59,084 nucleotides of DNA. Source: a virus (taxonomy: Duplodnaviria; Heunggongvirae; Uroviricota; Caudoviricetes). Position numbers and translations under genes: made by a program. Every line of letters starts with the position of its first letter. Within the stretch, counting starts at the first letter, position 1. The notes under the pieces were generated by a model. It was not told the DNA's origin. It did no database searches and saw only the letters and a list, made by a program, of their open reading frames with translations. The stretch lies in the IMG/VR virus record IMGVR_UViG_2703718809_000006, one strand, 5' to 3'. Positions 8,028 through 10,716 of the stretch are shown here, piece after piece.

Positions 8028-8216
8028 GTGGTAGTGCACTTTAACATCGGGAGAATAATCGTGTCATCCAAGGTTAATTATGAGTCGCTGGCATCGGTCA
8101 TGCCGCGTAATGAACAGGAAACAGATGCTGTAGTGGACCCTGTAATCGCTGAAATGAATGCTCGCCTGGAGGCTGAATTTGCAGCTGAGAATGAACATAC
8201 CACCCAGGGCGACTAG
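8028..8216 (+). CDS. Small hypothetical protein (62 aa)
   Basis: ORF overlaps the 5' end of the next gene; no recognisable motif. Confidence 0.3.
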   Translation: MVVHFNIGRIIVSSKVNYESLASVMPRNEQETDAVVDPVIAEMNARLEAEFAAENEHTTQGD

Positions 8217-8820
8217 GACTGTTTTTTGTGTCGGTAGCGGTCCGTCACTCACTCGTGAGGACTGTGCTGCTATAGAAAAAACTGGCTGTTCAATCATCGC
8301 GGTTAACAATTCCTGGCAGATGTTCGATGACATTTATGCCTTATACGCCGGTGATTTGTCATGGTGGAAGCAATACGGATCCACCATACCGGGAGGGAGA
8401 TTCCGCAAAGTGACAGCCAACCTGGCGGCGGCGAAATCATTTTCGTTGGAGTACAGGCGATATTGTGGACCGGCGGAAGGGGTAAATAGCGGCGCGCAGG
8501 CTATCAGTCTGGCTGCTGAATCAGGGGCTGAAGTAGTGGTATTAGTCGGCTATGACTGTTCTCTGCAAAACGGCCTTCATTGGCATGGCGCGCACCCTCA
8601 AGCCCTACGGAATCCAACGCAGGTGTCTATTTCAAAATGGCAACAGCAGTTCCTGGATACCCGCAAAAAACACGCAGATTTACATATTTTGAATGCAAGT
8701 AGGAGCAGTGCAATTCAATGTTTCCCAAGAATAAATTTAGAGGCAGTGATCGCGTTATTATCGTCGGCAGTGGCCCAAGCGCCGCAAACTTTGTTGCGCC
8801 GCGCGGAGTGCCGATTATAG
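8191..8820 (+). CDS. Rossmann-like GxGPS protein, paralog 1 (DUF115/MAF-like?)
   Basis: 'VFCVGSGPSL...IIAVNNSW...VLVGYDCS' parallels the next ORF; start must be the ATG at 8158 or 8191 to include the conserved N-terminus. Confidence 0.45.
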   Translation: MNIPPRATRTVFCVGSGPSLTREDCAAIEKTGCSIIAVNNSWQMFDDIYALYAGDLSWWKQYGSTIPGGRFRKVTANLAAAKSFSLEYRRYCGPAEGVNSGAQAISLAAESGAEVVVLVGYDCSLQNGLHWHGAHPQALRNPTQVSISKWQQQFLDTRKKHADLHILNASRSSAIQCFPRINLEAVIALLSSAVAQAPQTLLRRAECRL

Positions 8821-9344
8821 CGGTCAATGGGGCCATCGACTGGCTGAACCGCGCTTCTTATTTTTTCACACTTGATCCATCGCCAGACAATATGCGGCGC
8901 GTTGGTCGTGGCCGCCGTCGCCGTGGTGTTTGTTATTGCATGGCACTACCCGATGTTAAAGAACGTGAAGTCAGAGATGGCGTTCTGTGCTTCCGTCGTG
9001 TGGCTGAACGCGGCATGGAGCCAAACAATACGAATTCTCCCGAGTGGTGGGCGTGGCGCTGGTCCGCACATTTCGGACTTTGCGAAGATGAGAATGAAAT
9101 TGCCAGCGGCAATAGTGCATATGGTGCTCTGAACCTGGCTTTCCATATCGGATTCAAACATGTCGCCCTGGTGGGCGTTGACGCTACACAAGAACCACGC
9201 GTTCACTCCGGCGGCACGCCAAAAAATCTAAGTCACCTGCCTTTGTTATTCCAGTCTGCGCGTGAACGGATTGACGTTGTTTCATGCGGGAAAATGGGAG
9301 GTATTCCGCAGATGACTCTTAAAGAATGGCTGAAGAATACATGA
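8718..9344 (+). CDS. Rossmann-like GxGPS protein, paralog 2
   Basis: '[10 protein letters not shown]...[10 protein letters not shown]...ALVGVDAT' is homologous to the preceding ORF. Confidence 0.5.
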
Positions 9345-10018
9345 TGGCACCCACAATTTATCACCGTATCGACGGTACCAAATACAGGAATGTCTGGGTT
9401 GTTGGTGATCTGCATGGTTGCTACACCAGACTGATGTCCGAACTCCATCGTGTGGATTTTGACCCGGCGCAGGATTTACTGATATCGGTCGGCGACCTTA
9501 TCGATCGCGGTACTGAAAATGTCGAATGTCTGGAACTATTGCAGATGCCCTGGTTCAGGGCAGTGATGGGGAACCATGAGCGGCTGATGATTGATGCGTT
9601 AAGTCCAGATGGCAACGTGAATAACTGGCTAATGAATGGCGGACAATGGTTCTTCATGCTGGACACTGATCAGGAAATATTAGCTTGGGCGCTGGTGGAG
9701 CTGGTAAAGCGTCTGCCCTATATCATTGAGTTGAACACCGGGCAAGAAACTATCGTTATAGCCCATGCCGACTATCCGGATAATGAATACCAATTCGGTA
9801 AGGAGGTGCCGCTTTTCAACGTTGTCTGGGCGCGCGAGCGTATCAGTGATTCGATGGATGATATTGGTGGCGAAATTTCGGGCGCAGATCGTTTTATCTT
9901 TGGTCACACTCCGGTGAAAAGCCCGAAGACATTCTGGAATCAGCAGTATATCGACACTGGTGCCGTATTTTGCGGAAACCTGACATTGATGAAAGTGAAA
10001 GGTGATGGTGCAGCATGA
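9341..10018 (+). CDS. ppp: Serine/threonine protein phosphatase (lambda PPase-like)
   Basis: Metallophosphatase motifs GDLHG, GDLIDRG, GNHE; collinear with lambda PPase as recalled. Start codon ambiguous (9326, 9341 or 9344). Confidence 0.8.
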
Positions 10019-10716
10019 AGATTGCTTTAGTTTTTCGCTCTGGTGGTGACTATAACGCTTCCGATGTGCAGTGGCTGGTTAATCAACTGCCAAAAGGCTA
10101 TGAAATTATTTGCCTGACAGACCTGAAGCGTTTACATGTACCTGGCGTCAAAGTTGTCCCATTGATCAACCAGTGGCAAAAGTGCCGTGGCTGGTGGGCG
10201 AAAATCGAGTTGTTCCGACCGGATATAACCGATGATCTGTTCTATCTGGATTTGGACACGGTTATTGCCGGTGATATACGCCCAATCCTAGAGCATCCAC
10301 CAACCAGCTTCACCATGCTTAGGGATTTTTACCATCCACAATATCGTGGCAGCGGTGCCCTGTGGATACCAAATAGTGTTAAAGCGCATATCTGGAGTTC
10401 ATTCTGGCAAGATCCGGAAGGTTGGATTTCTCGTTGTGTCACTACTGAGTGCTGGGGTGACCAGGGGTTCTTACGAAAGGTTATGGGCGATGATACACCA
10501 GCATTTCAGGATCTGTATCCAGGATGGTTTGTAAGTTACAAGGCCGATGTTGTGGAACCTGGTTCAAAATATGCGAGCGCGCGTTACTCCAGGGGGAATG
10601 GGGCATTACCAAAAGACTGCCGAATAATCTTTTTCCACGGCAAACCGCGACCTCGCGAAGTGTCAGAGGATTGGCTTCCCCTTATCAGCTCGTTTTTTGA
10701 GCGAGAATCAGAATAA
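10015..10716 (+). CDS. Putative GT-A type glycosyltransferase
   Basis: ATGA overlap with ppp; 'FYLDLDTVI' DxD-like motif. Confidence 0.4.

Follow-up and report, generated by a model that had tools for sequence, protein, structure and literature searches.

A probable glycan-building module in the pmgO-pmgP-pmgQ region of phage P1, with relatives in many phages of Gram-negative bacteria

The window analysed here, a 59,084-nucleotide stretch of viral DNA (IMG/VR record IMGVR_UViG_2703718809_000006), is a P1-like phage-plasmid, in which we studied the operon pmgN-pmgO-pmgP-ppp-pmgQ and the unlinked gene dbn. Comparisons of sequence, predicted structure and gene neighbourhood indicate that pmgO, pmgP and pmgQ probably belong to a glycan-building module. 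We give about even chances to the fuller proposal, according to which P1 has in these three genes, assisted by the unlinked dbn, its own version of a phage-specific cassette for building glycans, working by the mechanism set out below. Between positions 7000 and 13000 the window matches Salmonella phage SJ46 with 100% identity and phage P1 with 98.6%. The GenBank record of P1 holds counterparts of all the open reading frames (ORFs) studied: pmgN, pmgO, pmgP, ppp, pmgQ and dbn. That record gives pmgO, pmgP and pmgQ a 'putative morphogenetic function' and describes dbn as 'function unknown, possible glycosyltransferase'. In phage P7, the genes of the pmgO/pmgP/ppp/pmgQ region are named hdmA-D, 'head morphogenesis'. 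The labels 'sialyltransferase', 'glycosyltransferase' and 'possible glycosyltransferase' already exist in PHROG and in the P1 GenBank record. What is new here is the PmgO-PmgP-PmgQ cassette without ppp, its fusions and its placement in the late module, the sequences themselves and their loose database labels being known already; our literature search found no paper on a PmgO-centred cassette, its fusions or its late-module placement.

The sequence-only reading of this region had singled out two paralogs with a GxGPS motif, at 8191-8820 and 8718-9344, and we found both ORFs and their shared motifs as it described them. PmgO (plus strand, 8158-8820 as annotated) carries VFCVGSGPSL...SIIAVNNSW...YAGD...NSGAQAI...VVLVGYDCS...HWHGAH, PmgP (plus strand, 8718-9344) carries PIIAVNGAI...TLDPS...GNSAYGAL...ALVGVDAT, and the elements common to both are (V/A)GSGPS, IIAVN, one conserved Asp, NS(G/A) and G(Y/V)D. 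Pairwise BLASTP aligned the N-terminal motif alone (E 0.003); the family profiles, for which 51 PmgO and 327 PmgP homologues were gathered, aligned over 164 columns with 98% probability (E 1.4e-13). Each protein also finds the PHROG of the other, and a search with PmgP reaches PmgO-like genes of alphaproteobacterial prophage loci (E about 1e-5 to 1e-6). Because of the profile alignment, the PHROG cross-matches and the reach of the PmgP query into PmgO-like genes, we regard the two proteins, on sequence grounds, as true, ancient and distant paralogues. Residues G28-P29-S30, N50, D66, S111-G112, G131-Y-D133-C-S135, H141 and H143 are invariant in the PmgO family, as are P20, N37, D53, G131-N132-S133, G153-x-D155 and H173 in the PmgP family, where the S18-G19-P20-S21 loop is nearly invariant. 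Since the PmgO homologues and the PHROG match begin near residues 17-25 of annotated PmgO, the internal ATG at 8191 is the more probable start, instead of 8158. The two genes overlap by 103 nt (8718-8820) in different frames, and the DNA that specifies the N-terminus of PmgP, as far as the PmgP GSGPS loop, also specifies the conserved C-terminal core of PmgO. This overlap measures about 95 nt in enterobacterial relatives (L004, L088 and L089) and just about 10-30 nt in relatives from Pseudomonas, Zhongshania and Brevundimonas.

PF01973 (MptE-like, formerly DUF115/MAF_flag10) was the only Pfam family matched by PmgO, PmgP or their homologues, which bears out the earlier suggestion that both are DUF115/MAF-like. 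At E<=0.01, 32 of 34 PmgO homologues and 53 of 62 PmgP homologues matched it, with best E-values of 3e-8 and 9e-7, respectively, and at E<=1 all 62 PmgP homologues did so. Fused homologues scored 41-45 bits, above the gathering score. The PF01973 signature (GxGPS loop, N, D, S...G-x-D) is invariant or nearly so in both families, with an S-to-D spacing of 22, and the motif segments of PmgO and PmgP align to positions 24-62 and 135-170 of the Pfam hidden Markov model. The fold of PmgP agrees with this placement. Its AlphaFold model has a predicted local distance difference test (pLDDT) score of 95.3, and the best PDB match found by Foldseek was archaeal MptE (8sd5; probability 0.99, template modelling (TM) score 0.43-0.45), followed by SteA and then by the Campylobacter sialyltransferases CstII/CstI (probability 0.6-0.7, TM 0.41-0.46). 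Judged from the model, the match is remote and yet coherent, given that MptE, SteA and CstII/CstI make up one fold group. PmgO and PmgP belong to this MptE-like/DUF115 (Maf, CstII-like) fold group. Because the PF01973 fold also holds pyrophosphokinases, glycosyl transfer by the pair is a function that we infer.

The characterised glycosyltransferases of PF01973 are the Maf enzymes, flagellin nonulosonic-acid O-glycosyltransferases such as those of Magnetospirillum (Maf, 5MU5), Geobacillus and Clostridium, which are cytoplasmic and protein-directed and O-link ulosonic acids activated by cytidine monophosphate (CMP) to Ser/Thr. PmgO and PmgP resemble them in the GxGPS loop, the N, the D and the S followed after 22 aa by G-x-D. 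They differ in being single-domain proteins of about 200 aa that form a paralogous pair, are phage-encoded and show no link to flagellin or nonulosonate biosynthesis genes. Maf proteins are much larger, with flanking acceptor-binding domains that PmgO and PmgP do not have. The invariant D66/S111/D133 of PmgO and D53/S133/D155 of PmgP agree with Maf in residue types and Ser-Asp spacing, an equivalence set by motif position with no superposition, and CstII shows the same S...D arrangement. Maf activity depends on one Ser, one Asp and a further Asp or Asn, and in E. coli BL21 two Maf enzymes draw on endogenous CMP-Kdo to O-link 3-deoxy-D-manno-oct-2-ulosonic acid (Kdo) to Ser/Thr (bioRxiv 10.1101/2020.06.03.131540).

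CstII and CstI (CAZy GT42) have a fold similar to that of the PmgP model, and the GNGPS and SG...G(I/Y)D motifs (SG...GID in CstII) line up in the same order when the PmgO profile is aligned with CstII. There is no significant sequence similarity: the PmgO profile reached CstII in PDB with E 0.2-0.7, so that GT42 membership is not indicated, and hhalign gave E 0.007-0.01 at 4-5% probability, with an unconvincing alignment of the His region; no equivalent of the CstII lid and catalytic His188 is established in PmgO or PmgP. The PHROG label 'alpha-2,3-sialyltransferase' is owed to the resemblance to CstII/CstI, and it is not to be taken literally, because CMP-sialic acid is not made by E. coli K-12. 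A weak similarity to WaaZ, the Kdo III transferase, showed up with its NCBIfam model (TIGR04437 / GT73; E 0.11, 11.8 bits against a 200-bit cut-off) and by hhalign against E. coli WaaZ (E about 0.002, 14-15% probability, C-terminal motif alone), and one fused homologue has a faint precomputed match to PF27901 that counts with these hits. Resting on sequence at E 0.002-0.01, the WaaZ and CstII comparisons are hints and do not establish membership.

The gene at 10015-10716 (plus strand), which the sequence-only reading took for a DxD glycosyltransferase-like gene, is pmgQ, and this assignment was confirmed by sequence profile as well as by fold. The PmgQ family profile matched the GT8 enzymes Gat1 (6mw5, E 1.6e-6) and GlyE in PDB. 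The PmgQ model (pLDDT 94.5) matched 6mw5 in PDB by Foldseek with E 8.6e-9, followed by glycogenin, GlyE and LgtC, all with probability 1.0 and TM 0.5-0.62. Invariant in the family are the DxD motif D79-L80-D81 and, within the C-terminal motif F207-H208-G209-x-P211-R212-P213, residues H208, G209, P211 and P213. The DxD aligns to YIDAD / YLDAD and the C-terminal motif to ...NPKPW / ...PTKPW in Gat1 and WaaO, the latter motif corresponding to the GT8 H-x-x-G-x-x-KPW. According to the model, PmgQ is thus a divergent, retaining-type glycosyltransferase of GT8 fold (GT-A) with a DxD motif. With the GT8 enzymes glycogenin, the Skp1 galactosyltransferase Gat1, GlyE, LgtC and WaaO/WaaJ it shares the GT-A fold, the DxD and the C-terminal His-...-(K/R)P; it differs in being shorter (233 aa) and phage-specific and in matching no Pfam family at E<=1, PF01501 (Glyco_transf_8) included.

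For dbn (1225-2223, plus strand), the earlier description as GT-B-like was upheld at lower certainty. The C-terminal half of Dbn (residues 229-315) matched the Pfam family Glycos_transf_1, of the GT1 clan, with 25.0 bits against a cut-off of 26.4 (E 1.5e-5). Its two homologues match this family as well, and the EX7E motif E248-S-L-G-L-T-V-L-E256 is invariant among the three proteins. From these sequence features Dbn is probably a GT4-type GT-B glycosyltransferase. It is the weakest assignment of the set, because sequence and profile searches of Dbn against PDB returned no match. In P1, dbn lies 7 kb from the operon, directly downstream of the ban helicase gene. Dbn homologues occur 3-3.5 kb from PmgQ/PmgP homologues in Serratia and Buttiauxella prophage remnants.

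The sequence-only reading had grouped these genes into one module flanking ppp. Conserved gene neighbourhood and fusion proteins support the grouping of PmgO, PmgP and PmgQ, while ppp falls outside the conserved module. PmgO-, PmgP- and PmgQ-like genes are contiguous, without ppp, in a Citrobacter rodentium lambdoid prophage and in one Pseudomonas prophage. A scan of one genome per species yielded 24 loci; about 15 of them hold two or three of the PmgO/PmgP/PmgQ genes, mostly contiguous, in Gamma-, Alpha- and Betaproteobacteria and in Bacteroidota. A metagenome-assembled genome of Gemmatimonadota yielded PmgQ- and PmgP-like genes only, with about 3.5 kb between them. One protein (P0171) is a PmgO-PmgP fusion, and PmgO is fused in other cases to a TylF-type sugar O-methyltransferase domain or to its usual partner of about 290 aa. 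In BFVD, uncultured-phage proteins of 441-700 aa resemble PmgQ in fold, two of these bearing the name MptE-like. The sequence-only reading would have been refuted had profile searches assigned unrelated folds to the proteins; the searches did not do so.

With 7,685 clusters at 50% identity (E<=1e-3) and at least 569 IMG/VR loci, the PmgO family is a large one. The IMG/VR scan used a PmgO alignment free of P1; the P1-led PmgP alignment gave 80 P1 copies and no diversity. PmgO-like genes adjoin two GT2 enzymes together with a TOD1/MUCI70-type transferase, GT9 and three kinds of methyltransferase, all above Pfam thresholds. This constant PmgO core, accompanied by shifting transferases and methyltransferases, looks like the pattern of a glycan-building locus. 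In lambdoid and D3-like prophages, PmgO is most often accompanied by a protein of about 275-313 aa that bears the motif G-M-x-G-x-G-D-x-I-Y-Q-R-A-F (L158 7543-8484; also L114, L122, L131, L136, L138, PAJU2 ORF011 and D3 orf12). This partner is sometimes fused to PmgO (P0217 and P0322) and is usually followed by a Methyltransf_23 protein of about 205 aa. The L158 copy, the sole one scanned, had no Pfam match; as a sequence resemblance, the N-terminal motif recalls GT9 heptosyltransferases.

All the loci that we examined seem to derive from prophages, and outside P1 the cassette was always in the late region; among these loci, none had the cassette beside an integrase gene and none was without phage genes. 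In five phages the cassette comes directly after the major capsid gene, which lies at 8179-9375 in L005, 5841-7214 in L096, 3396-4628 in L098, 4900-6330 in L111 and 4405-5592 in Pseudomonas phage D3 (L193). In PAJU2 it follows a head-completion gene, and most PmgO cassettes are next to lysis genes, upstream of terminase. The PmgO homologue of PAJU2 (ORF010, L194 5974-6543) was deposited as 'structural protein'. The PmgO homologue of Klebsiella phage Eowyn (L195 4998-5570) bears the same label, which may have been copied by homology. Should virion proteomics lie behind such labels, the enzyme may be carried by the particle. In D3, a PmgO-like match (L193 5637-6355) runs unbroken over 5801-6334 in the frame of orf7; because it is unbroken from 5801, the annotated orf7 start (5897) removes the GxGPS N-terminus, and orf6.5 is, judging from the sequence, probably a spurious overlapping call.

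Other features of these loci touch on possible acceptors. The capsid proteins of all five capsid-adjacent phages end in short Ser/Thr/Gly C-termini (GSLSES, GNLSGAS, GSLKDGS, SGATGS and GSLTAS). A similar tail, GAGSASS, is present in L112, where the cassette is not capsid-adjacent, and a Ser-rich tail is absent from the capsids of PAJU2, L198 and L004. We kept these C-termini as a lead and not as a glycosylation signature, given the lack of a control set and the relatedness of the capsids, which means that the tails may reflect shared ancestry. Separately, locus L197 (2029-3699; 8377-11598) encodes a PmgO-like protein with C-terminal Ig-like (Big_1/Big_13) domains; its gene adjoins a GT2 gene, and an invasin/intimin-like gene lies about 5 kb away. 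In Serratia L003 (2674-5115) a PmgO-like gene adjoins two Big_1 proteins. These arrangements may hint that Ig-domain proteins serve as acceptors.

In the mechanism that we propose, PmgO and PmgP, as small single-domain paralogues of the Maf/CstII/MptE fold, would act together, probably as the heterodimer that the P0171 fusion predicts, and would most likely transfer a CMP-activated ulosonic acid, of which CMP-Kdo is the sole generally available one in E. coli; they would add Kdo or a related sugar. PmgQ would then act as a retaining hexosyltransferase of the GT8 type, dependent on Mn2+ and its DxD, and add a hexose, probably from uridine diphosphate (UDP)-glucose or UDP-galactose, and Dbn, a GT4-like GT-B transferase, would extend the glycan. 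The four P1 proteins, in which inspection of the translations revealed no obvious signal peptide or transmembrane segment, would be soluble, cytoplasmic and made after the C1 repressor is lifted. A short glycan would in this way be built on an acceptor produced in lytic growth, the likeliest being a virion protein; ppp would be a passenger gene of the operon, and the modification would be dispensable for laboratory plaque formation.

Kdo is a rather doubtful, though reasoned, choice of donor. A universal donor such as CMP-Kdo would fit, because genes for making sugar nucleotides are missing from the cassettes and every identified host is Gram-negative, and the weak WaaZ similarity points in the same direction. 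A virion or other phage protein as acceptor is somewhat better placed, as a possibility somewhat short of even; it is favoured by the placement in head modules and by the analogy with mycobacteriophages. In these phages, virion glycosylation cassettes reportedly place transferase genes in the structural operon by the capsid gene, are dispensable for growth and vary in complement, and Freeman et al. (Cell Host Microbe, 2023; cited in PMC12363180 and PMC12691614) are said to have demonstrated the virion glycans experimentally. The mycobacteriophage cassettes differ in their enzyme families and their actinobacterial hosts. Combining all these elements, P1 and many phages of Gram-negative bacteria would O-glycosylate their own virion proteins by means of the Maf-like pair PmgO/PmgP acting on host CMP-Kdo, with variable transferases and methyltransferases extending the product; we hold this complete statement tentatively, as unlikely to be right in every part.

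Twenty-four of 29 P1 single-gene knockouts showed no plaquing defect and unchanged anti-restriction against EcoK, EcoA and EcoB (PMC9024508), and pmgO, pmgP, ppp, pmgQ and dbn are listed as non-essential in a second paper, by CRISPR interference (CRISPRi) and with reference to the same deletion survey (PMC10695390). These results remove the 'morphogenetic' label and weaken the idea of restriction evasion, which the sequence-only reading had offered as a purpose of the module: the knockouts plaque normally and keep their anti-restriction.

Several observations weigh against virion glycosylation by a PmgO/PmgP glycosyltransferase pair. In the Pfam scan, PmgO and PmgP of the window scored 23.4 bits (E 5.7e-5) and 20.9 bits (E 3.4e-4) on PF01973, below the gathering score of 34.6, and single-sequence and profile searches of both against PDB gave no significant match, their placement coming from fold comparison. 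The top structural match of PmgP is a pyrophosphokinase and no glycosyltransferase, with TM-scores of just 0.43-0.46. The cassette of P1 is not next to head genes, and the site between lysis genes and terminase is also common for unrelated accessory genes. Glycans are never mentioned in two cryo-electron microscopy papers on P1 (head, PMC12810830; tail, PMC10304247), and the main text of the P1 virion proteome paper mentions neither glycosylation nor the cassette genes. Finally, the two genetic studies cited above report no knockout phenotype for the cassette genes, and the GT8, GT9, GT4 and WaaZ-like partner families also build the lipopolysaccharide (LPS) core of Gram-negative bacteria, to which all identified hosts belong.

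This last point makes LPS remodelling the strongest rival, because GT8, GT9, GT4 and WaaZ-type enzymes are core-building families: GT8 includes WaaO/WaaJ, GT9 the heptosyltransferases and GT4 WaaG, and WaaZ is the Kdo III transferase. In lytic growth, the enzymes would remodel the LPS core or another envelope glycolipid, for instance by adding Kdo and a hexose at the cytoplasmic face, and progeny or superinfecting phages would then not bind the infected cell or its debris. The LPS core is, moreover, the receptor of P1. We nevertheless judge this reading unlikely. The genes are repressed by C1 in P1 and lie in late operons elsewhere, away from the attachment and immunity regions that are usual for seroconversion genes, and, since LPS already at the surface would persist, a late change would mask receptors poorly. 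Remodelling also leaves unexplained both the placement between capsid and connector genes and the 'structural protein' label of the PmgO homologue. The best PmgQ matches (Gat1, glycogenin and GlyE) are protein-directed GT8 enzymes, with LgtC close behind. The cassette shares with the gtrABC system of O-antigen seroconversion, and with the T4 alpha/beta-glucosyltransferases, that it would provide phage-encoded sugar transfer as an accessory, non-essential function; folds, targets and genomic positions differ, T4 modifying 5-hydroxymethylcytosine (5hmC) in DNA and gtrABC encoding membrane proteins that act on periplasmic O-antigen.

The structural match to MptE raises a different rival, in which PmgO and PmgP are MptE-like pyrophosphokinases or other nucleotide-dependent transferases that activate the hydroxyl of a small molecule or sugar for PmgQ and its partners, with ppp possibly as a linked phosphatase step in P1. 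Not only is this archaeal 6-hydroxymethylpterin diphosphokinase (M. jannaschii; 8SD5) the best PDB match of PmgP, ahead of SteA, it also gives the Pfam family its name, and ppp overlaps both neighbours, suggesting coupling with pmgP and pmgQ. Yet MptE shares 13-14% identity with PmgP, performs pyrophosphoryl transfer in folate/methanopterin synthesis and has an unrelated genomic context; no folate or pterin genes were seen near the cassettes, and no cassette outside P1 contains ppp. The partners are nearly all glycosyltransferases and sugar-type O-methyltransferases, and the conserved Ser...Asp motif comprises the residues required in Maf and present in CstII, so that we consider this reading improbable, more so than LPS remodelling. 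Glycosylation or other modification of the phage DNA before packaging, as a means of evading restriction or other DNA-targeting defences, seems to us very improbable. Late, lytic expression would suit it, and in a Bacteroidota locus (L103) the cassette lies among apparent nucleotide-metabolism genes, as read from the ORF translations only. Against it stands the unchanged anti-restriction of the P1 knockouts. P1 and the lambdoid carriers are not known to encode a reactive-base pathway of the 5hmC or 5-hydroxymethyluracil type. Restriction enzymes routinely digest P1 DNA, neither the GT8 nor the MptE-like fold is known from any DNA glycosyltransferase, and PADLOC returned no match for PmgO, PmgP, PmgQ or Dbn.

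With regard to the control of the operon, the P1 annotation places the C1 repressor operator Oppp at the position homologous to 8001-8017 of the window, where CATGCACTAATTAATTT is found on the minus strand. At the operon end, operator OpmgRa (10718-10734, plus strand; ATTGCTCTAATAATTCC) and operator OpmgRb (10767-10783, minus strand) bracket a terminator-like hairpin at 10743-10770 that folding predicts with -13.4 kcal/mol (z -5.05) and that is followed by a T-run; this T-run is part of OpmgRb. A scan for consensus promoters and terminators was uninformative and overlooked the post-pmgQ hairpin that folding confirmed. Because Oppp precedes the operon and two more C1 operators bracket its terminator, the sequence places the operon under lytic-cycle control by C1, silent in the lysogen and on in lytic growth.

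The first gene after Oppp is pmgN (8028-8216, plus strand), which encodes 62 aa from the GTG at 8028, the P1 annotation starting at the equivalent of 8061, and which overlaps the annotated pmgO start. It matched no family and was not found beside PmgO homologues outside P1-like elements. It is essential by CRISPRi screen and not by deletion (PMC10695390), an odd discrepancy given that all downstream operon genes are non-essential. The gene ppp (9326-10018, plus strand) encodes a Mn-dependent Ser/Thr phosphatase of the lambda-PP/NinI type (Metallophos / lambda-phosphatase homologue, 59 bits). It overlaps pmgP by 19 nt, and its stop overlaps the start codon of pmgQ; because of these overlaps with both neighbours, the sequence suggests translational coupling. 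We rejected ppp as a part of the module, since it sits between PmgP and PmgQ homologues only in P1-like elements, and among the scanned loci it was found in these alone; its other appearance, in L165, is in a lambdoid nin-like position.

Two further nearby P1 genes annotated with a 'putative morphogenetic' function also encode enzymes: PmgM (7416-7994) has a VRR-NUC nuclease domain, sub-threshold in Pfam and with strong PHROG matches, and Pap (12353-12859) is a PNKP-type HAD phosphatase. Elsewhere in the window, the Tn1721/IS903D/blaCTX-M-27 insertion of SJ46 is absent, leaving a clean junction at 32147/32153. The segment 33016-34705 contains two low-GC ORFs (346 aa, 33097-34137; 169 aa, 34137-34646) where SJ46 has a RelA/SpoT-family gene. 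The whole of 32147-34705 looks like a variable cargo site and gave no PADLOC matches.

For seventy years P1 has served as a workhorse of genetics. The 'putative morphogenetic function' of pmgO, pmgP and pmgQ is contradicted by the knockouts, and our analysis recasts these genes and dbn as a probable glycan-building cassette. The PmgO core is widespread in phages of Gram-negative bacteria and is accompanied by changing transferases, as is typical of surface glycans subject to diversifying selection. The question of the target is cheaply testable, because the P1 deletion mutants already exist. Were the target LPS, the cassette would represent a new kind of receptor remodelling in the lytic phase. 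Were it the virion, particle glycosylation would extend from the mycobacteriophages to the best-studied coliphages and to Pseudomonas phages, with consequences for how antibodies recognise and clear phages in therapy, for phage-host recognition and for the stability of the particles; virion O-glycosylation, if true, would mean that coliphage and Pseudomonas phage particles carry an unrecognised, diversifying glycan coat.

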